A stretch of 64,000 nucleotides of DNA from assembly GCA_963740635.1 (NCBI GenBank), contig CAVUEQ010000001.1, positions 593,026-657,025 of the forward strand, given 5' to 3'. The DNA is from an uncultured bacterium. Lineage in GTDB: Bacteria; Patescibacteriota; Saccharimonadia; UBA4664. The notes beneath the pieces were generated by a model. The model did no database searches. It saw only the letters and a program-made list of their open reading frames with translations, and had not been told where the DNA came from. Shown here one piece after another: positions 1,315 to 33,858 of this stretch (within the stretch, counting starts at the first letter, position 1; the number at the start of each line of letters is the position of its first letter). A program made the translations under genes and the position numbers.

Positions 1315-3069
1315 TTATTTGGCGAGCTGGGGGGTGACCTCGGCGAGAGCCTGGGTCATCGTTTCGACCGCGACGCCGGAATTCTTGACGGCAGCCATGT
1401 CGGCGTCGAAGACGGCCGGGGTGGTGCTATACTCCCCTTCTTGCAGATCGGGGCTGATCTGGTGATACACGATGATGAGCCAGGTCTTGTCGTGGACGGC
1501 CTGATTGACCCAGCCCTGAACCTCAGCGGCGGTGGTGAGGTTGGTAATGTTTTGGACCCGCAGGCGGTAGAGGTCGGTGTCGTCCTTGGAATTGTAGCCG
1601 GGGTCGGTGGTGCGGTAGGACTTATAATACTTGGCCGCGGCAGCGATGGTCTGATTGTTGTAGGTGCCGTAGGGAGCGGCGAAGTCCGAAATGGGGCCGC
1701 CAAATTTATTGGTGAGCGTGGTCTGGCTGTTTTTGAGCTCGTTATTGAGCTTGGTGGCGTTCAGCGTGGTGAGGTCAAGGTGGTTGACGGTGTGGGAGCC
1801 AATTTCATTCCCGGCCTGCTTGATCGCCGAAATTTCGGCCACGGTCATATAGTCTGGCTGCTTAGTGAGGTAGCCGGAGATGATGTAATACGTCGCCTTG
1901 AGGCCGTATTTGTTCATGATGGGCAGACCCTGAGTGTACTGGTTGGCCCAGCCGTCGTCGAAGGTGAGAGTGACGATGGCACGGTTGAAACCGATGGGCG
2001 CGTAGGGCAGGAAGCTGAAATCGTTGGTGGTGAGGGTGCCGTTTTGGTACATCAGGTGCATGAGGCTGGCCTTGGCGACGCCGGCTGGTATGACGTACTC
2101 GAGGCGCAGGTGGGTCCAGGTGGAGGCGGCGAGCGCCGTGCCAACGTAGAGATACTGCATGGTGCCGTCGTTCATCGTAAGGGCAATGTCAACCTCAGAT
2201 TGCACACTCGACTTGTACCAGTCGGTGAACACATAGTCTTTGCCCGGCGTGACGGCCTGGGGGGTGTAGGCCCAGTTGGCGGTCCCGCTGGCGTAACCCG
2301 TGACTGTGAGGCCCAGGCTGCGCGAGCCGGTATGGCCGGTAGTGAGGTAGCTAAAAGCAGAGTTGTTGGTGCCCCAGCTCGAATGGGTCCAGTCTTGGGG
2401 CTGGCCGTTCACGGCCGTCTCGACCGACGGGTTCGGCACACCGGTGGCTGAGGGCGGAGGCGTGGGGGTTGGGCTCGGTGTTGGGGTTGGGCTCGGGGTG
2501 GGCGTAGGCGTGGGCGACGGCGATGCGCCGGCTGTGCCGAGCGCGAAATTATCGGTGGTGAGCGTGCCGTTGGCCGCGATCACGTGGAACACGGTGGCCT
2601 GCTTGGCGCCGGCCGGGGCGGTAAAGTTGGCCGAAAACTGCTTCCAGGCCGAGCTCGCGGATACTGCTCCCAGATCAAGGTAGCTGAGGTTGCCGGCGCC
2701 GTCGTCAATTTGGACGAAGGCGTTGGTGGCCACGGTCGACTGGTAGTAGTCACTGAAGGTGTACTGCGCGCCGCCGGTGACGGCCACCGGGGCAAAGTAC
2801 CATTTGGCGTCACCGTCGGTGTAGCCGCTCACGCTCACGCTGAGCGCGTGCGCACCGTCTTCGGCGCCCGAATTGGTGTAGCTAAAGACCGGAGTGTTGG
2901 CGCCCCAGTGACCCTGGAGCCAGCCGTCGGGGGCGCCGCCGGTGGCGGTTTCGGCCGAGGGGTTGGCTACCAGGTTCGGCCCGGCCGCACGGGCGCCGGC
3001 CAGTGGCTGCATGAGTCCGAGCAGGACCAACGCGGTGGCTAGAATTTGTGGCATTTTCTTGAATGTCAT
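1315..3069 (-). CDS. Secreted polysaccharide deacetylase (CE4/NodB domain) with two N-terminal CBM-like sugar-binding modules
   Basis: 584 aa. RBS AAGGAGGG precedes ATG 3069. Signal peptide MTFKKMPQILATALVLLGLMQPLAGARA. Two repeated modules of about 150 aa (NPS.E...P.GW...WG.N...FSY...TDNF) are separated by a PT-rich linker. C-terminal NodB motifs TFDDGW and HTVNH. Confidence 0.9.
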   Translation of the reverse strand: MTFKKMPQILATALVLLGLMQPLAGARAAGPNLVANPSAETATGGAPDGWLQGHWGANTPVFSYTNSGAEDGAHALSVSVSGYTDGDAKWYFAPVAVTGGAQYTFSDYYQSTVATNAFVQIDDGAGNLSYLDLGAVSASSAWKQFSANFTAPAGAKQATVFHVIAANGTLTTDNFALGTAGASPSPTPTPTPSPTPTPSPTPTPPPSATGVPNPSVETAVNGQPQDWTHSSWGTNNSAFSYLTTGHTGSRSLGLTVTGYASGTANWAYTPQAVTPGKDYVFTDWYKSSVQSEVDIALTMNDGTMQYLYVGTALAASTWTHLRLEYVIPAGVAKASLMHLMYQNGTLTTNDFSFLPYAPIGFNRAIVTLTFDDGWANQYTQGLPIMNKYGLKATYYIISGYLTKQPDYMTVAEISAIKQAGNEIGSHTVNHLDLTTLNATKLNNELKNSQTTLTNKFGGPISDFAAPYGTYNNQTIAAAAKYYKSYRTTDPGYNSKDDTDLYRLRVQNITNLTTAAEVQGWVNQAVHDKTWLIIVYHQISPDLQEGEYSTTPAVFDADMAAVKNSGVAVETMTQALAEVTPQLAK

Positions 3070-3306: not shown

Positions 3307-3480
3307 TTAGCGCTTTGAGAACTTAGTGGCAGCCATGTAGACGATAGCCCAAACAGCGAGGCCGGCGGCCGCCGCGACGGCGATCTCCACAACGTTGCTC
3401 ACACCGGTCAGAGGCAAAACAGCCGCAGTGGTCGCAGCGCCTAGAACCGCAGGAACGGGGGTAGGAGTAGGTGTATACAT
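3307..3480 (-). CDS. 57-aa micro-protein with a C-terminal LPXTG-like sorting-signal architecture
   Basis: Manual translation: MYTPTPTPVPAVLGAATTAAVLPLTGVSNVVEIAVAAAAGLAVWAIVYMAATKFSKR. It has LPLTG, then a hydrophobic stretch, then a basic tail. RBS AAAGGA lies 7 nt before ATG 3480, and the ORF starts 15 nt after the GT2 stop. Confidence 0.45.
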   Translation of the reverse strand: MYTPTPTPVPAVLGAATTAAVLPLTGVSNVVEIAVAAAAGLAVWAIVYMAATKFSKR

Positions 3481-3494
3481 TACGCGTCCTTTCG

Positions 3495-4691
3495 TTAGTT
3501 AGTTACTGCCGCAGCATTCATGATGCGGTATCGGCGCCCAGCGGTAGTCCAGCCCGCTTCCGTGCTGAACTTGCGCTGGACGACGATTTCGTACCACGAC
3601 TTAAAGAACACAACCAAATTGACGAACCGCAACATATAGAACATCGGGAACGCCGCCACCACGCCAGGCCGGTGATTGAGGCGGGCCGACCAGATGGTGA
3701 ACATCAAGAAGATGACCATATCGTTGAGGAACATGAGGGCAAGCGGTGCGTAGTTTTGGCCCCACCAAGCCAAGAATGGCACTACGGTGAGCTCCAGCAA
3801 CAGCACCACCTCCTCCAGGATCATGAAGCCCATGTAGGCGTCGAGGCGGTGGGGGCGCAGGCCCACCTTGTGCCGGAGCATCACCTGCCAAGCGCCCCGG
3901 TACCAGCGGGAAATCTGCTTCCAGTAGTCGCCGAAGTCCTTGGGGTCCTGGGTGAAGGCCTTGGCCTGCGGAATGTAGGCGATTTTGCCGATCTTCTGGC
4001 GGTGGATCTGCATGGTGAGGTCCATGTCCTCGGTCAACGACGGTTGGGTGAAATCGAGCTGGTCGATAATGTCGGTCCGGAACACGCAGGTGGCGCCGGG
4101 GATCACGGGGATGACGCCGAGGAAGTTCTGGATGCGCCGCATTATTTCCAGGCCGAGGGTGTACTCATAGGTGCGGTATTTGGAGATCCAACCGCCCTCG
4201 AGGCTCTGGACATGGCCGGTGGCCGCCACGAACGAATCGTCGAGGCGGGCCTTGAGCTCGTCGAAGTAGCTCGGGGTAAACACGCCGTCGGCGTCGGCGA
4301 TGTGGACCCAGGTGTAGCGCTGCTCGATGCCGAAGTGCTTGATGCCGCCCAGGATCGCCATGGCCTTGCCGCCTTGGGGCTGGGCGAAGACGTTGTACCA
4401 CGGCAGGTGCGAGAGCGCGATGAGCACGGTGGTGTCAATGGAGCCGTCGGACACCACGAAAATGTCGGCGGCGTCCATGCCGGCGGCCAGCGCCGAGCGC
4501 ACCGTGGCGGCAATCACCACCTCCTCGTTGTGAGCAGGCAGAATGAGTGCGATCGAGCGCTTGGGCTCCGCGGGTGATTTAGCTGTGGCGATGTCTTGCA
4601 TGAAATGGTGAATGCTCTTGTTACTAAAATCAGAGGGCCGCAGCAAGCGCTGCAGTACCCTCTGATATCCTTTTATTTCCGAATTAAACAT
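3495..4691 (-). CDS. Processive family-2 glycosyltransferase (IcaA/PgaC/NodC/chitin-synthase-like beta-glycan synthase)
   Basis: 398 aa. Motifs ILPAHNEE, VSDGS, TEDMDLT and QISRW (QxxRW). Several C-terminal TM helices. Confidence 0.9.
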   Translation of the reverse strand: MFNSEIKGYQRVLQRLLRPSDFSNKSIHHFMQDIATAKSPAEPKRSIALILPAHNEEVVIAATVRSALAAGMDAADIFVVSDGSIDTTVLIALSHLPWYNVFAQPQGGKAMAILGGIKHFGIEQRYTWVHIADADGVFTPSYFDELKARLDDSFVAATGHVQSLEGGWISKYRTYEYTLGLEIMRRIQNFLGVIPVIPGATCVFRTDIIDQLDFTQPSLTEDMDLTMQIHRQKIGKIAYIPQAKAFTQDPKDFGDYWKQISRWYRGAWQVMLRHKVGLRPHRLDAYMGFMILEEVVLLLELTVVPFLAWWGQNYAPLALMFLNDMVIFLMFTIWSARLNHRPGVVAAFPMFYMLRFVNLVVFFKSWYEIVVQRKFSTEAGWTTAGRRYRIMNAAAVTN

Positions 4692-4722
4692 TGTGAAGTA
4701 ATCTCGTCATTTTGTCAACCCC

Positions 4723-6120
4723 CTATTTGGTTCCTTCCCGGTTTTGCGTCTTCAGGTAGGCTGAATGCATGGTCTCGATAGACAGCCCGGAAGCCTTCAC
4801 GCTCACCAGATCGGTCTCAAAGTCGGCCGGCGATCGCGAGTACTCACCCCCGTTGGCGGCCACCTGGTGGTACACCAGGATGAGCCAAGTGTGGTTTTGC
4901 TTGGCGGTGGTAAGCCACGCGCGCATCTGCATAGGGGTGGTGTCGGCGCGGACGTTTTCAACCTTGAGCTGGTAGGGGTTGAGGGCGTCGGGCGAGTTGA
5001 AGCCGACCTCGGTGGAGCGGGAGGTTTCGTAGAGGGACTTCACGGCTGCGGTGGTTTGGGCATTGCTGGCGCCAAAGGGCGGCGCGAAATCAGCGACGTC
5101 ACCGTAGCACTTGGTGAGGCCGTCGTGGGACAGCTTGACCTGCTTCTGCAAATCCTGGTCGCTGAGCTTGGTGAGGTCGGGGTGGTTGTAGGTGTGGGAG
5201 GCCACCTCGTGGCCGGCTTTGGTGAAGTCATAAACCTGGCCCGGGGTCATGTACTGGTTTAGCTGCCCCAGGAAGCCGGACACGAGGTACTGCGTGCTCA
5301 CCACGCCGTAGCTGTTCAGCAGCGGCAGCGCGTTGTCGTGGATGCTGCGCCAGCCGTCGTCGAAGGTGAGAGAGACCATGCCGGTGGCAAAGCCGGGGGC
5401 GGTAGCCGATTGCAGGGTGTAATTGTCGGTTTCAAGCCAGCCGGCGCGGTCGAGCGGGTGCGAAATTTGGATCTCGGTGACGTCGGCCGGCACGAAGAAA
5501 CGCTGAGTGTAGAGCGCCCAGCCGTCGGAGGCGGCGGTGGTGTCGAGGTTCACGAATTGCTGCTTGCCGCTAGCCTCCTTGAGCATGAGCACGGCGCGGG
5601 TGGTGACGTTTGAGCGGTAATTGTCCTGGAATTGGTAGTAGGCGCCGGGGGTGACCGCGAGGTTGCCGGTGAACCAGTCGGCGGTGCCGTCGGTGTAACT
5701 GCCGACGTCGATGCGCAGGCCGGTGCGGGAGCCGTAGCCGGCCACCACGGTGAAGCGGCCGTCGTTGCGGCCGTAGGCGTTACTGTCCCAGCCGCGCGGG
5801 TGGGTGCCGGCCGAGGTTTCCAGGTTGCCGTTAGGAACGAGGTTGCCGGAGGTGAGGGTGACCGGGGCGTACTCGACGCCCGGCCCGAGGCCGGCCGCGT
5901 CGGGCAGGGTCACGGCTTCGTCGGAATGCACATCGGCCTGGACCGAGCTGGGGGCCTTGGCGTGGGCGATGAAAGCGCCGGCCGAACAGCGGCTGTCGGT
6001 GATGGCTTGGCCAATATCAATCGTGCCGCGGCCGAGGGCGTAGGAGCCGGAGGCAGCAAGCAGGACGAGGATAATTAGAAAAGCGCGAAATTTAGTTAAC
6101 ACTCTAGGGCAAAGCCACAA
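4723..6120 (-). CDS. Secreted polysaccharide deacetylase (CE4/NodB) with one N-terminal CBM-like module
   Basis: 465 aa. TM/signal segment FRAFLIILVLLAASGSYALG. CBM-like module (VPNGNLE...GWDSNAYG...TDNY). NodB motifs TFDDGW and HTYNH. The start could be TTG 6120 or GTG 6102. Confidence 0.9.
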   Translation of the reverse strand: MWLCPRVLTKFRAFLIILVLLAASGSYALGRGTIDIGQAITDSRCSAGAFIAHAKAPSSVQADVHSDEAVTLPDAAGLGPGVEYAPVTLTSGNLVPNGNLETSAGTHPRGWDSNAYGRNDGRFTVVAGYGSRTGLRIDVGSYTDGTADWFTGNLAVTPGAYYQFQDNYRSNVTTRAVLMLKEASGKQQFVNLDTTAASDGWALYTQRFFVPADVTEIQISHPLDRAGWLETDNYTLQSATAPGFATGMVSLTFDDGWRSIHDNALPLLNSYGVVSTQYLVSGFLGQLNQYMTPGQVYDFTKAGHEVASHTYNHPDLTKLSDQDLQKQVKLSHDGLTKCYGDVADFAPPFGASNAQTTAAVKSLYETSRSTEVGFNSPDALNPYQLKVENVRADTTPMQMRAWLTTAKQNHTWLILVYHQVAANGGEYSRSPADFETDLVSVKASGLSIETMHSAYLKTQNREGTK

Positions 6121-29787: not shown

Positions 29788-31374
29788 CTATCCCCACTCA
29801 ACCGTAGCCGGGGGTTTGTCCGAAATGCGGTAGGTAACTGCGGCCAGCTCCGGGATTTCGTTGGTGAGGCGGCGGGAGACGTGGCGCAGGAATTCATAGG
29901 GCAGCTCGGCCCATTCGGTGGTGAAGACGTTGACGCTCCAGATTGCCCAGAGGGCGAGCACCAGGCCGGTACCGGCGTCGTCGCCCTTGGAGTAAGTGTG
30001 CTGCGAATGGGTGACGACCGCGCCCGCCTGCCAGACGGTTTCGTAGAGTTTGGCCCGGCGCATTTCTTCCATGTAGATGCCGTCGGCGGCGCGGGCGATG
30101 CGCAGGCGCTCGGCGGTCACTTCGCCTTCGATGCGCACCACCAGGCCCGGGCCCGGGAACGGGTGGCGAATCAGTAGCAGCTCGGTGAGGCCGAGGCTGC
30201 GGCCGATGGCGCGCGCAGTGTCTTTGACGCAGTCGTCGAGGGGTGTGAGCTCCTGGTAGTCGAAACCGAGGTTGGCGTTGTGGTGGAGCTTGATTTGGGC
30301 CTTGCGCGCGCCCGATTGGTGGCCGCCGCCGGATTCCACGATGTCTGTGTACAGCGTGCCCTGCGAGATATACTCGGCGCCGAATTTGGCGGCCTCGGCC
30401 TCGAGCACGGCTTTGTAGACGCCGCGCATGGCTACACGTTTGTCGTGCATTTTGGTATGGCCGGCTAGCGCTTTCAGAAAATCGTCGGTGGCGTCGTGGA
30501 CGTGGAGGTCGAGGTGGCCGAAATATTGCTTCACGAAGGCCTCGTCGTCGGGGCGGTCGATGCCGCGGATGTACACAGCCCGCACTTGCTCGGGCTTCAG
30601 CGCTTTGTCCAGGATGGCGGCTACCACCGACGAGTCGCTGCCGCCGGACAGGGCAAGCAGCACGCGCTTATCCCCCACCTCTTTCTGCACTTCGGCCACC
30701 TTGCGGGCGGCCGCGTCCTCGGCCGGGAAGCGGTCCTTGGCGCCGGCGATGGTAAAGACGAAGTTTTCGTAAATCCGCATGCCGTGCTCGGTGGCGGTGA
30801 CTTCCGGGTGGAATTGCACGCCCCAGAGGTGGTTCAAGTGGCCGGCGGCGAGCGGCCCGTTGTCACTATTGGCCAATACCTCCATGCCGCCGCCGGGTTC
30901 AATGTGGTCGCCGTGGCTTTGCAGAACTTTGGAGCCGTCCGGTATGCCGTCCAGAATGGGTGAGCCGGGACTGGTGATCTGCAGCTTGTGCTGGCCAAAC
31001 TCGCGGTGGGTAGCCGCCCCAATCTTGGCCCCATGGTGTGACGCCCACATCTGGAAGCCGAGGCACACCCCTAGCACCGGGATGCCCAGCTCGTAGATGT
31101 CCGCGTCAAATGGAGGGTTGTCCGAAGCCGACGACGGGCCGCCCGACACCACGATGCCTGTGGGCGCTATGCGCTTCACGTCGGCGGCCGTCACGTGCGC
31201 CGGGTCCGCCACCAGGCAGTACACACCCAGCCGGTCGAGCGCGATCTTGATTAGGTGGTCAAATTGGCTGCCCATCGCGAAAAGCAGAAACACTTCGTGG
31301 GTCTGGCGCAACTTTTTCTCGGCGGCAATTTCTTCAAGCACTTCGGGGGTAACCTTAGCGAGGGTGTTGATCAC
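29788..31374 (-). CDS. guaA: GMP synthase (glutamine-hydrolysing)
   Basis: 528 aa. GATase motif GVCLGFQ, PP-loop SGGSDSS, and C-terminus ...KPPATVEWG. Confidence 0.95.
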   Translation of the reverse strand: MINTLAKVTPEVLEEIAAEKKLRQTHEVFLLFAMGSQFDHLIKIALDRLGVYCLVADPAHVTAADVKRIAPTGIVVSGGPSSASDNPPFDADIYELGIPVLGVCLGFQMWASHHGAKIGAATHREFGQHKLQITSPGSPILDGIPDGSKVLQSHGDHIEPGGGMEVLANSDNGPLAAGHLNHLWGVQFHPEVTATEHGMRIYENFVFTIAGAKDRFPAEDAAARKVAEVQKEVGDKRVLLALSGGSDSSVVAAILDKALKPEQVRAVYIRGIDRPDDEAFVKQYFGHLDLHVHDATDDFLKALAGHTKMHDKRVAMRGVYKAVLEAEAAKFGAEYISQGTLYTDIVESGGGHQSGARKAQIKLHHNANLGFDYQELTPLDDCVKDTARAIGRSLGLTELLLIRHPFPGPGLVVRIEGEVTAERLRIARAADGIYMEEMRRAKLYETVWQAGAVVTHSQHTYSKGDDAGTGLVLALWAIWSVNVFTTEWAELPYEFLRHVSRRLTNEIPELAAVTYRISDKPPATVEWG

Positions 31375-31925
31375 GGCGCGTCCTTCTTTAAGCGGCTGGC
31401 AAACTTACTGCGTAGTTTAGCTAACTTCGGGTCAATAATCACGTTGCAGTAATCGGGGCGCCGGCCGGAATTGTAAAAATCCTGGTGCTCAGGCTCGGCT
31501 TCGTAGAATTTCTCGAGCGGTTTCACTTCGGTCACGATCGGCTTGTCGAACAGTTTTTGGGCTTCGGGAAGGGATTTTTCGACAATTTTCCGTTGTTCGT
31601 CCCCAGTATACAGAATAATGGAGCGGTACTCGGGACCGGTGTCGTACATTTGGCGGTCCTTGCTGGTGGGATCGTGGGTGATCCAGAAAATTTCGAGCAA
31701 GTCGGCGAGGCTGATAACTTTCGGGTCAAATGTCACCTGCACGACCTCGGCGTGGCCGGATTTTTTGGACGCCACTTGCCAGTAATCGGGATCTTCGGTG
31801 TCGCCGCCGGCGTAACCCGAGACCACCCGCGTTACGCCCTCCACCCGGCGGTAGACGGCATCTATGCACCAGAAGCACCCGCCACCCAGCACAATGGATT
31901 CGGTGGGGGTTGGTGCGTTGGTCAT
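31371..31925 (-). CDS. msrA: Peptide-methionine (S)-S-oxide reductase
   Basis: 184 aa. GGGCFWC motif. 4-nt overlap with guaA. Confidence 0.93.
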   Translation of the reverse strand: MTNAPTPTESIVLGGGCFWCIDAVYRRVEGVTRVVSGYAGGDTEDPDYWQVASKKSGHAEVVQVTFDPKVISLADLLEIFWITHDPTSKDRQMYDTGPEYRSIILYTGDEQRKIVEKSLPEAQKLFDKPIVTEVKPLEKFYEAEPEHQDFYNSGRRPDYCNVIIDPKLAKLRSKFASRLKKDAP

Positions 31926-31933
31926 ATCTATAG

Positions 31934-31962
31934 TTTACAAACCCCGGCAAGGCTTGTACACT
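31934..31962 (+). promoter_or_regulatory. Candidate sigma70-like promoter for the leader and the DUF62-like gene
   Basis: TTTACA (31934..31939), 17 nt, TACACT (31957..31962). Confidence 0.35.
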
Positions 31963-32005
31963 TTGGAACGTGATTACGTTAGTACACAACCCAGCCACCA
32001 CGGCC

Positions 32006-32062
32006 ATGATGATGGTCATGATGATGCTCCGCACCCGCGGAGGCTTGGGCGCGCGCAGGTAA
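32006..32062 (+). CDS. Candidate 18-aa regulatory leader peptide MMMVMMMLRTRGGLGARR
   Basis: Reads ATG ATG ATG GTC ATG ATG ATG CTC CGC ACC CGC GGA GGC TTG GGC GCG CGC AGG TAA. Six AUG among the first seven codons. No clear SD. The ORF overlaps attenuator segments 1 and 2. Confidence 0.4.
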   Translation: MMMVMMMLRTRGGLGARR

Positions 32063-32087
32063 CTCACGTACATTGCACCAAAGCCGG

Positions 32088-32112
32088 GCCTCCGCACATC
32101 GCGGAGGCTTTT
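32088..32112 (+). terminator. Attenuator terminator hairpin immediately upstream of the DUF62-like gene's RBS
   Basis: GCCTCCGC (32088..32095), loop ACATC, GCGGAGGC (32101..32108), TTTT (32109..32112). The 3' arm plus TT (GCGGAGGCTT) is duplicated at 32037..32046, giving an alternative antiterminator pairing. Confidence 0.6.
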
Positions 32113-32135
32113 CGTTGCTGCCAAGGGAGGCACGC

Positions 32136-33038
32136 ATGACAGTCACGACCGACCTGCCGACGCACGTCGCCTACGTTACGGATTGCATCGACCCGACCGG
32201 CGGGCTCGAGGCGAACAACGCCGTGACCCGGATAGCCACGGCGGTGGCCCGGGAACTCGGTGCGAGCACTAGCTTCGTGCCGGTGCGCTACCAGGGCGAC
32301 TGTTTCGATGCGGCGTTGACGACGGTGGATATCGCCGAGCAGGAGCGCCAGAGCAGCCTGCAGCCGCCTGCGGGGTCGACGATCCTGCTGGGCAACCCGG
32401 CGCCGCGGGCGCTGACGTTCGGACAGGAGAGCAACGGCATCCGGTTCTGCTGGTGCTACATCGGCGACCTGTTCGCGCTCATCCCGTTCGCCCCGCGCTG
32501 GCTGTCGCTCGCCCACCGGCTGGGCCTGATCAACCAGGTGTTCCTGCTCGACGTCGAAGCAGTGGCCAGTTGGGGGGTCAAGCACGGCCGTGTAACGCCC
32601 GACCAGGCCGATGCTATGAACAGCGGCTTCCGCGGTCTCACCTTCGTGCCGCGGGCGGCCCGGTGGATCCTTCAAGACCGCACTCAGGTACCGCACCAGG
32701 TGATCGATCTGGGCGAGCCGGGGCGGCCCGAAGGTGTGACCGCTCGCATCGATAACTTCGGCAACGTCTACACGGACCTGTTGCCCGAAGACGTCGATTT
32801 TTGGCAAGGCCGGGACCTAGAGTTGGTGGACGGGAGGTACGCACGGTGCTACGAAACACTGGCCGAGCTACCTCCGGACGGCAGCGTAGGCGTGGCCGTC
32901 TCCAGCTCCGGCTACGGAGACAACAAGGTGCTCAAGCTGGCTATCCAGGGTGGCTCGGCCGCTGAGGCGCTCGGGATTACTCAGCCCGGTCAGCCGGTCT
33001 TCGCTCCGTCAGCGCTCCTGGCCGGCGCCACGGCCTGA
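32136..33038 (+). CDS. Divergent DUF62 / SAM hydroxide adenosyltransferase (chlorinase/fluorinase-fold, SAM hydrolase)-like protein
   Basis: ORF track 32073..33038, trimmed to ATG 32136 (GGGAGG 6 nt upstream). The C-terminal half follows the family pattern: RIDNFGNVYTDL, SSSGYGDNKVLKLAIQGGSAAEALGI, and FRGLTFVPRAA where the family has FHGRDIFAPAA. The N-terminal VTDCIDP diverges from the family's TDFG. Confidence 0.55.
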   Translation: MTVTTDLPTHVAYVTDCIDPTGGLEANNAVTRIATAVARELGASTSFVPVRYQGDCFDAALTTVDIAEQERQSSLQPPAGSTILLGNPAPRALTFGQESNGIRFCWCYIGDLFALIPFAPRWLSLAHRLGLINQVFLLDVEAVASWGVKHGRVTPDQADAMNSGFRGLTFVPRAARWILQDRTQVPHQVIDLGEPGRPEGVTARIDNFGNVYTDLLPEDVDFWQGRDLELVDGRYARCYETLAELPPDGSVGVAVSSSGYGDNKVLKLAIQGGSAAEALGITQPGQPVFAPSALLAGATA

Positions 33039-33388
33039 CTCACCCGCTCCCCTGCGGCTTTAGGGAGCCCGCCCCGTTTACGACTGCACTTCCATGCAAG
33101 GAAGAATTCCGCAGCCGTAGGCGGGGTTCTTCATTGTTGGGCACAAAAATCAAGCGGGCCGCACCCGGCCCGCCCTAGATAGTCTTAGAAGTTCCGACTG
33201 TTTGGCACCTGCAGCACCCAGTGCAAAAGGCTCAAACTCTACCTTTTGTGTTTTGATCGAAGCTCCACCTCGACTATCTGATACTTTTGTACCATTAGCG
33301 GAATGGGCCAGTCAATAGCATAAGCGTATTAAATGGCTTGACCTTGAGGGTCAAATAATGTCCTTATCTTGGCCACACCATATTATTA

Positions 33389-33417
33389 TCGACAAAGCAA
33401 ATGTCACGTGCTAAAAT
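33389..33417 (+). promoter_or_regulatory. Candidate sigma70-like promoter for the 33475 gene
   Basis: TCGACA (33389..33394), 17 nt, TAAAAT (33412..33417). Confidence 0.35.
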
Positions 33418-33474
33418 TTTCGAGGTGTTTTTTGCACGGTACCATCACCCAATCCTAGACCTGAGGAGCCCGAC

Positions 33475-33858
33475 GTGCCCGTCCCTGACCCTCCCGAGCC
33501 CAGGCCGGCATTCTCGCCCTGGCTGCTAGTTATGCCCGTCAGCCCGCCCAATCTGGCCATGGCCACGCGCTTGTGGACCGATCACGGGATCGATCCGGAA
33601 GTCCTGGAATTGGTGTCGTTCGGTGTCCTGCTCCGCACGGAGTTCGAGGCGCCGGCCTTCTACGATTCCATCAAGCAGGCCAAACTCGCGAACGGCGCTA
33701 GCCACGTGATTATCGTGGTCGGCAACAACCCCGATTACAACCTAGCGCTGGCCAACCAGGCGCGCCTGGCCGGACACTTCGGCAAATGCGTTATCGTGTG
33801 GGTAAGCGCGACGCAGCCGATTGTGCTCATGAAGCACCAATGCAAGGCCGCAGCTTGA
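33475..33858 (+). CDS. Hypothetical protein (127 aa)
   Basis: GTG start with GAGGAG 6 nt upstream. No recognisable motif. Preceded by a 435-bp AT-richer non-coding stretch. Confidence 0.5.
   Translation: MPVPDPPEPRPAFSPWLLVMPVSPPNLAMATRLWTDHGIDPEVLELVSFGVLLRTEFEAPAFYDSIKQAKLANGASHVIIVVGNNPDYNLALANQARLAGHFGKCVIVWVSATQPIVLMKHQCKAAA

Follow-up and report, generated by a model that had tools for sequence, protein, structure and literature searches.

A probable ribosome-mediated attenuator that reads methionine codons upstream of a divergent DUF62-fold gene

Ribosome-mediated (leader-peptide) attenuators have been characterized for several amino acids. The classical examples – trpL, hisL, leuL, thrL, ilvL/ivbL and pheL, represented in Rfam by Trp_leader, His_leader, Leu_leader, Thr_leader and Phe_leader – consist of a short open reading frame (ORF) in which codons for a single amino acid cluster, alternative 1:2, 2:3 and 3:4 RNA pairings, an intrinsic terminator before the structural gene, and a stop codon placed to mask segment 2. 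The amino acids known to be sensed in this way are Trp, His, Leu, Thr, Ile/Val and Phe; a related translational form exists for Cys. Control by methionine, by comparison, is credited to riboswitches, T-boxes and protein repressors. Here we analyze a leader (positions 31934–32135) in a 64,000-nucleotide stretch of DNA from an uncultured bacterium (contig CAVUEQ010000001.1 of GenBank assembly GCA_963740635.1; hereafter ‘the window’). The leader carries a run of methionine codons and lies upstream of a gene for a divergent protein with the DUF62, or S-adenosylmethionine (SAM) hydroxide adenosyltransferase, fold. Its sequence and those of its relatives make it probable, in our judgement, that the leader is a ribosome-mediated transcription attenuator that senses Met codons.

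All of the classical features listed above recur in this leader. It departs from the classical attenuators in that the sensed codon is AUG, in that translation appears to be leaderless rather than initiated from a Shine-Dalgarno (SD) sequence, and in that it precedes a single DUF62-fold enzyme gene rather than a biosynthetic operon. The enterobacterial attenuators belong to Proteobacteria, whereas the hosts here are mostly Patescibacteria, also called the Candidate Phyla Radiation (CPR), together with a GC-rich lineage. The sensed amino acid, the leaderless initiation and the host range are the new elements; leader-peptide attenuation itself is known.

Two other groups of described systems invite comparison. 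SAM riboswitches (the S-box and others) and Met T-boxes likewise exert cis-acting 5′ terminator/antiterminator control over Met/SAM genes, but they sense SAM or uncharged tRNA through aptamers, whereas the window element would sense through a translated ORF. The second group consists of leaderless short ORFs (sORFs) with poly-Cys runs in mycobacteria. As reported for these (Canestrari et al., bioRxiv 10.1101/834739), the sORF is the first cistron, and stalling on it remodels the RNA, unmasks a downstream ribosome-binding site (RBS) and switches on genes for the metabolism of that same amino acid. The window leader resembles them in being a putative leaderless sORF whose clustered codons specify a sulfur amino acid; it differs in that the amino acid is Met and in that a hairpin and T-tract are combined with an explicit antiterminator, and the two show no sequence relationship.

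Full-text searches of the literature found no attenuator using Met codons. The original prediction for this locus, made from its sequence, had remarked that no established Met-codon attenuator class was known to its author, and neither these searches nor Rfam 15 contradict it. An Rfam cmscan of positions 31000–33500 at E ≤ 10 returned only a chance match to Prion_pknot and no SAM riboswitch, T-box or leader family, and a scan of the whole window at gathering thresholds returned nothing. Among homologous loci (given L numbers here), the Met-leader loci L024, L030, L038 and L095 and five loci with another motif were searched against Rfam at E ≤ 0.1; the only matches were sub-threshold hits to Phe_leader, on the wrong strand or downstream of the gene.

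The anatomy of the window leader is laid out in Table 1. Its promoter, TTTACA-17-TACACT, is present where it had been predicted, and a consensus promoter scan lists it with 9 of 12 matches; the 2.6 kb scanned contain four such promoter-like sites where 0.7 would be expected. The run of six ATG within seven codons is the only one of its kind on either strand of the window, every other run having three or four ATG. We found the four mutually complementary segments at the predicted coordinates. Direct comparison of the letters showed segments 2 and 4 to be exact 10-nt duplicates, and G.U and G-C pairs do carry segment 3 to 32084/32086. Segment 4 is followed by TTCGTTG.

From this anatomy we propose the following mechanism. 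The transcript would begin about 7 nt after TACACT, at or beside GTG 31970, so that a ribosome would initiate on a leaderless 30-codon ORF. The ribosome would pass 12 ordinary codons and then meet six AUG in seven codons (32006–32026). Were charged elongator Met-tRNA scarce, it would stall on the run and cover segment 1, leaving segment 2 (32037–32048) free to pair with segment 3 (32084–32095) upon its synthesis; the 3:4 pairing would then be blocked, and RNA polymerase would read into the DUF62-like gene. Were Met-tRNA plentiful, the ribosome would proceed over segment 2 as far as the stop codon (32060), and segment 2 would be masked or recaptured by segment 1. With segment 2 unavailable, the 3:4 hairpin would form and transcription would end at the U-rich tail near 32110–32118. 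The physiological logic would be that the enzyme frees L-methionine from SAM when Met is short.

To place the leader in a comparative context, we collected relatives of the regulated protein. The window protein itself is uncommon: among 5.8 billion proteins, a word-indexed search retrieved 12 matches, the best of them (other than itself) at 36–38% identity. At L002 (38% identity), a divergent msrA is followed by ...ATGATGGTCATGATGATGGGCTCCGCACCTGCGGAGGTTTTGGCGTAA, GGCCTCCGCaagttGCGGGGGTTTTTTG, an RBS and the gene. At L006 (36% identity), msrA is followed by an identical TTTACA-17-TACACT and then by ATGATGGCCATGATGATGCGCTCCGCAACCGCGGAGGTTTTGGCCTGA and a terminator. The counterparts of the window’s terminator 3′ arm and tail are GCGGGGGTTTTTTG in L002 and CGCGGAGTTTTTCG in L006. 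Beyond the Met run the window is read in a shifted frame relative to these two loci, but the hairpin nucleotides CTCCGCAnCnGCGGAGG are retained. It is thus the Met codons and the RNA that are conserved rather than the peptide, as an attenuator predicts. In L008, an AT-rich homologue, ATGATGCACATGATGACCCCCAACTAGGGGTTTTG precedes GCCTCaatcgGAGGTTTTTT.

Broader searches showed that the family is considerably larger. A scan of GTDB species representatives with CPR-type members yielded 249 relatives, of which the best 80 were taken; about half of these 80 are labelled Patescibacteria/CPR and the rest mostly carry the automatic labels ‘uncultured Gammaproteobacteria’ or ‘Pseudomonadales’. At E ≤ 1e-30 a profile search of 1.84 billion representatives recovered 249 clusters, a number that rises to 365 at E ≤ 1e-10. 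A profile scan of a genome contig collection with a three-sequence alignment found no relative, and a metagenome scan yielded one further, partial locus. Family members in reference genomes are mostly labelled Patescibacteria. The source organism has a GC content of 61%, and the window’s DUF62-like protein, MsrA and GuaA are each singletons at 90% identity.

For statistics we used 90 non-redundant loci of the DUF62-like family and examined the 300 nt upstream of each gene on the gene’s strand, scoring a Met run as at least three in-frame ATG within eight codons. Runs of at least three ATG are present at 43 of the 90 loci and runs of at least four at 33. The reverse strand has three ATG at four loci and at least four at none, and shuffled sequences give about 2 and about 0.1 loci, respectively; for runs of at least five ATG, mononucleotide shuffles of the 300-nt regions give 0.02 of 90 sequences. 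A chance origin of the runs is ruled out by this shuffle and strand comparison (43/90 versus about 2). ATG also ranks first among all codons for such upstream runs. Runs of at least four number 32 in the approximately 27 kb upstream of family genes versus 11 elsewhere (460 kb, both strands, about 0.9 Mb). Six of those 11 lie in open frames of at most 46 codons and were inspected in context, where none showed a leader-plus-terminator layout; the other five sit in open frames of 70–140 codons.

Several properties of the runs bear on how they are read. In 35 of 35 cases, successive ATGATG blocks are separated by 3, 6 or 9 nt – always a multiple of three, which indicates that the run is read as codons. 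The leader ORFs comprise 14–30 codons and have a common plan: a start, 6–13 ordinary codons, the run (3–8 ATG), a few codons and a stop. Peptide tails beyond the run are unconserved across loci. The regulated proteins of Met-run loci have a median identity of about 48%, with only one pair above 80%. Whether related genomes keep the Met-codon ORF and the alternative stems had been named as a test of the original prediction; the run is kept at the 43 loci, and 35 of these have a clear hairpin and T-tract 3′ of the ORF stop.

The switch itself was evaluated on these 35 loci. RNAalifold applied to a MAFFT alignment of 29 leaders found no structure, because stems differing in length and sequence are not in register, and per-locus folding, shuffle and permutation tests were used in its place. 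The duplex between segment 2 and the terminator 5′ arm is more stable than in 200 dinucleotide shuffles (mean z −3.2), with p ≤ 0.05 at 28/35 loci and a Fisher combined value of 1.6e-27. Native pairings average −15.6 kcal/mol versus −10.7 kcal/mol for pairings between segments of different loci (permutation p = 5e-5). At the five loop-proximal stem positions, segment 3 pairs with both segment 4 and segment 2 in 30–34 of the loci, with four to six pair types per position. Of the 122 cells in which the base of segment 3 is not the majority one, 96 retain a canonical pair with segment 2. The 2:3 antiterminator pairing is therefore statistically supported and locus-specific. In 34/35 loci the Met run is directly adjoined by a small 1:2 hairpin, which is weak (mean z −0.93, Fisher 1.9e-5).

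The position of the segments relative to a ribosome is equally regular. Measured from the first base of the final Met codon, segment 2 begins 12–15 nt further on in most loci, at the 3′ edge of a ribosome with that codon in its A site, and in 34 of the 35 loci a ribosome positioned on the stop codon would cover segment 2. When ribosomes were imposed on the folding, the median ensemble probability of the terminator was 0.02 with the ribosome stalled mid-run and 0.95 with the ribosome at the stop codon. Counted from the per-locus table, 22 loci switch cleanly. Together with the 43 Met-run loci, the 2:3 statistics support what was originally predicted for the window: a four-segment attenuator of the trp/his type, with Met codons, upstream of a DUF62-like gene.

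In the window, the 1:2 and 3:4 hairpins are both part of the RNAfold minimum-energy structure. The 1:2 hairpin is worth −9.5 to −10.9 kcal/mol, and the terminator hairpin (32086–32110) has 10 bp, −18.5 kcal/mol and the tail UUUUCGUU. In the alternative state, segment 2 forms 12 bp with 32084–32095, the region 32036–32097 folding at −29.7 kcal/mol; the 2:3 duplex has −25.2 kcal/mol against a shuffle mean of −16.5 (z −3.6). A comparison of the two states had been suggested at the outset, and both alternatives are predicted, at nearly equal energy: −40.0 kcal/mol for 1:2+3:4 versus −40.2 kcal/mol for 2:3. For a transcript ending at 32100, a ribosome stalled on the Met run gives 2:3 a probability of 1.0; the value is 0.22 for a ribosome at the stop codon and 0 for one over segment 2.

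The start of the leader ORF differs from what was first proposed. The codons and coordinates given for an ORF at 32006–32062 are correct, but the frame is free of stops back to an in-frame GTG at 31970, 7 nt after the −10 hexamer, and the leader most likely begins there as a leaderless ORF. Equivalent arrangements are present in the closest relatives. L006 has an ATG ATT ACC start 6 nt after its TACACT, and L002, with the promoter TTGCCA-17-TATGAT at the equivalent site, has a GTG ATT AAC start 7 nt after TATGAT. Across the 43 Met-run loci, a sigma-70-like promoter ends 4–9 nt before an in-frame start codon in 31, whereas random anchors gave a mean of 6.0 and a maximum of 14 (200 trials). The absence of a clear SD had been noted as a weakness of the leader, and leaderless translation from GTG 31970 would remove that caveat.

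The regulated gene had been described as resembling the DUF62 family, whose characterized members cleave SAM to adenosine and L-methionine. This likeness extends to the fold and to one Pfam domain: SAM_HAT_C (PF20257) is matched at 28.6 bits (cutoff 25.5), and a profile search of the PDB finds the C-terminal domain (2cw5, E 1.7e-7). An AF2 model (pLDDT 86.5) gives full-length Foldseek matches to 2zbv, 2f4n and 22uy over 285–297 columns, with E values of 1.7e-10 to 1.8e-8, TM scores of 0.49–0.66 and 9–15% identity. The structure of MJ1651, the (R)-SAM hydrolase, is among those matched. It does not extend to the N-terminal domain model PF01887, which has no match at E ≤ 0.01, or to the NCBIfam equivalog models for (R)-SAM hydrolase, which score 18 bits against cutoffs of 350–470; the protein is thus not an equivalog of that enzyme. 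Family members share the motifs TDCxDxNA, NVAPR, VDNFGN and QGGSA. As judged from the model, the protein has in common with the DUF62 family (PH0463, the (R)-SAM hydrolase MJ1651, 2zbv and the fluorinase/chlorinase superfamily) a two-domain fold over approximately 290 columns. At 9–15% identity and lacking PF01887, it is a distinct, very divergent and uncharacterized branch, a family of its own with about 250–365 clusters at 50% identity.

Against a Met-sensing transcription attenuator stand several observations. At equilibrium, the full-length leader transcript of the window shows no clean switch, the probability of 3:4 remaining at 0.41–0.86 despite a ribosome stalled at the Met codons, so the argument for the window must be a co-transcriptional (kinetic) one. 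A ribosome-free transcript ending at 32100 also forms 2:3, which means that the weak 1:2 hairpin (−9.5 kcal/mol) may fail to enforce termination when translation is lacking. The original caveat of a short U-tract stands: the tract is interrupted (UUUUCGUUG), and a consensus terminator scan did not call the 32086–32110 hairpin, because its stem takes in two of the T’s. Counted beyond the Watson-Crick stem, the tail TTTTCGTT has six T in eight. It is promoter geometry alone that points to the leaderless GTG start, and for so distant a DUF62-fold relative, release of Met by SAM cleavage can only be reasonably presumed. Finally, 47 of the 90 family loci have no Met-run element. One of the family loci, L010 (positions 1–115), encodes a close relative of the L008 protein and has a promoter, alternative GAGGT/ACCTC/GGAGGT hairpins and a T-tract but no Met ORF, an apparent loss or replacement of the sensor.

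We considered other explanations for the same features. The one that survives best keeps the leader ORF and hairpins but has them act mainly on translation, with little or no transcription termination. The weak U-tract of the window would fit such a mechanism, and the mycobacterial poly-Cys leaderless sORFs, which are reported to act in this way (bioRxiv 10.1101/834739), provide a precedent. In several CPR loci (L070, L063, L049 and L061) the terminator 3′ arm contains GGAGG 7–12 nt before the gene’s ATG and doubles as its SD. In the window, however, the RBS GGGAGG (32125–32130) lies outside the hairpin, separated from it by 14 nt rather than the 12 nt given originally, and in many loci the T-tract is 20–110 nt from the gene. 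A T-run also follows nearly all of the hairpins, which a structure that purely sequesters the RBS would not need. We regard a mainly translational switch as unlikely, though it is the alternative to be taken most seriously. For those CPR loci, control of translation by masking of the SD is a realistic prospect, and termination and SD blocking by a single hairpin may coexist there.

Met-rich sequences can scavenge oxidants, and the short ORF could encode a Met-rich micropeptide with a function of its own – perhaps as an oxidant sink tied to the msrA gene that lies divergently beside it in the window, L002 and L006 – with the hairpin merely its terminator. But msrA is missing from the CPR loci that bear the element, neither length nor sequence of the peptide is conserved outside the run, and the frame shifts among close relatives. 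A micropeptide also leaves unexplained both the locus-specific complementarity between segment 2 and the terminator and the fixed 12–15 nt distance from the last Met codon, and we consider it quite improbable. Still less probable is that a repressor or activator uses the direct repeat ATGATGATG-GTC-ATGATGATG, situated between divergent genes, as its DNA operator. This had been raised as an alternative at the outset, and we reject it on codon phasing and frame: the ATG units vary from three to eight, the interrupting triplets differ (GTC, GCC, CAC, AAC, GAA, TCG, CGA and others) while the spacing keeps to multiples of three, and the run always lies on the gene’s strand, in a frame with a start codon before it and a stop codon after it. 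Coding by the minus strand, where an ORF at 31979–32146 (−) contains EHHHDHHHGRGG and would read HHHDHHH as part of a His-rich small protein or a His leader, is scarcely credible, given that the CAT-frame ORF lacks a start codon in 19 of 43 loci, ranges from 7 to 91 aa with nothing conserved outside the run, would overlap the start of the DUF62-like gene in the window, and is opposed by T-tracts and promoters oriented for the plus strand.

Table 1. Features of the leader region and its flanking genes in the window.
Feature	Position	Strand	Basis or remark
−35-like hexamer TTTACA	31934..31939	+	Same hexamer and spacing in L006; overlaps possible msrA −10 of the other strand
−10-like hexamer TACACT	31957..31962	+	17 nt 3′ of the −35; identical in L006
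Leader ORF, probably leaderless, GTG start, 30 codons + TAA, peptide MITLVHNPATTAMMMVMMMLRTRGGLGARR*	31970..32062	+	Start predicted
Met-codon run ATG ATG ATG GTC ATG ATG ATG (6 Met in 7 codons)	32006..32026	+	Sequence
Segment 1, CTCCGC	32027..32032	+	Pairs with the 5′ part of segment 2
Segment 2, GCGGAGGCTTGG, antiterminator 5′ strand	32037..32048	+	First 10 nt (GCGGAGGCTT, 32037–32046) are an exact copy of segment 4
Segment 3, CCGGGCCTCCGC, common to antiterminator and terminator	32084..32095	+	Core GCCTCCGC at 32088–32095; folding
Terminator 3′ arm: segment 4, GCGGAGGCTT (32101–32110), and U-rich tail TTTTCGTT	32101..32116	+	Tail overlaps the last two stem positions
SD sequence GGGAGG of the regulated gene	32125..32130	+	Ends 5 nt before ATG 32136
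Regulated gene, 300-aa divergent DUF62 / SAM hydroxide adenosyltransferase-fold protein	32136..33038	+	Pfam, PDB profile, predicted structure
Divergent neighbour msrA (peptide methionine sulfoxide reductase)	31371..31925	−	Context, outside the attenuator; Pfam PMSR, 192 bits

The genomic context offers weak support for a link to methionine, from msrA and from methionyl-tRNA synthetase (MetRS) genes. msrA is the divergent neighbour in all three GC-rich loci and is itself preceded by guaA in the window. In L095, whose leader has eight Met codons, a MetRS gene (3326–4798, +) lies 27 nt downstream of the DUF62-like gene on the same strand. A MetRS gene is also the divergent upstream neighbour of the DUF62-like gene in L091 (972–2414, −), and a 77-residue MetRS-like stretch (anticodon-binding domain) is found just downstream in L031 (~1888–2118). 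The downstream neighbours of the family gene are otherwise heterogeneous, with no conserved operon partner; only occasional tandem paralogues and the MetRS adjacencies recur. In the tandem cases, the gene immediately 3′ of the family member is a SAM_HAT_C-positive paralogue of greater divergence, a tandem duplication (L054, 3300–4100; L060, 3307–4119; L079, 3333–4157; L097, 3301–4083). An assignment of the 518-aa gene upstream of L007 as guaA, as in the window, proved wrong.

Some loci that lack the Met-run leader have other features upstream. Four to five CPR genomes carry a different element, GTAGCGGAGGTAAT..ACGCTATGTGGAAATAC..GTATTCCT.GCTATTTCCCATCACA, followed by a terminator-like hairpin with an invariant CAGCCA loop. 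It is located at ~266–372 in L048 and at ~2355–2462 in L069, L073 and L076, and L089 has its 3′ half only. The element has no Rfam match, and an internal short ORF with SD and ATG loses its frame between loci. We consider it a candidate riboswitch, or other leader, replacing the Met-run leader. In one clade without a Met leader (L052, L079, L082, L083, L086 and L098; ~2040–2360, minus strand), a divergent tRNA-Ile(GAT) and usually a tRNA-Val(TAC) lie directly upstream of the gene in conserved synteny. The tRNAs upstream of these leader-less loci are tRNA-Ile and tRNA-Val, with no tRNA-Met among them.

We also noted additional signals around the window genes. On the minus strand, a TAAACT hexamer (the complement of 31932–31937) ends 6 nt before the msrA ATG at 31925, and a weak −35, TGTACA, overlaps the plus-strand −10. 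L006 shares GTTTACAAAC; with 8 of 12 matches the site falls below the promoter-scan threshold. On this arrangement msrA may itself be leaderless, with the divergent promoters interleaved (31926–31962). Downstream, a GC-rich 10-bp hairpin at 33152–33175 lies approximately 115 nt past the stop of the DUF62-like gene and has its T-tract on the minus strand, which suggests a monocistronic DUF62-like gene and a convergent transcript terminating at this point. A strong promoter-like site is present on the plus strand at 33389–33417.

A broader interpretation, which we hold tentatively and rate at somewhat below an even chance, is that the leader represents a leaderless ‘Met leader’ class distributed across CPR and a GC-rich soil lineage. 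Such leaders would gauge charged elongator Met-tRNA and activate a divergent enzyme that cleaves SAM, harvesting L-methionine (and adenosine) from it, and they would be the first recognized Met-sensing leader-peptide attenuators. If this is true, the SAM might come from a host or from the environment, in organisms unable to make methionine.

To our knowledge, almost nothing is known about gene regulation in Patescibacteria/CPR, where cultivation is rare. A sensor that can be read from sequence would give a direct handle on what CPR cells perceive as limiting, and the mechanism, if true, would be among the first amino-acid-sensing cis-regulatory mechanisms defined in these organisms. A Met-codon attenuator would also close a conspicuous gap in the specificities of attenuators, and the consistent leaderless geometry would extend the idea of sensory leaderless sORFs beyond mycobacteria. 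For the enzyme family, the finding would tie an uncharacterized branch of the SAM-hydrolase fold, of approximately 250–365 clusters, to methionine starvation – a functional clue, and with it a testable hypothesis about the role of these proteins.

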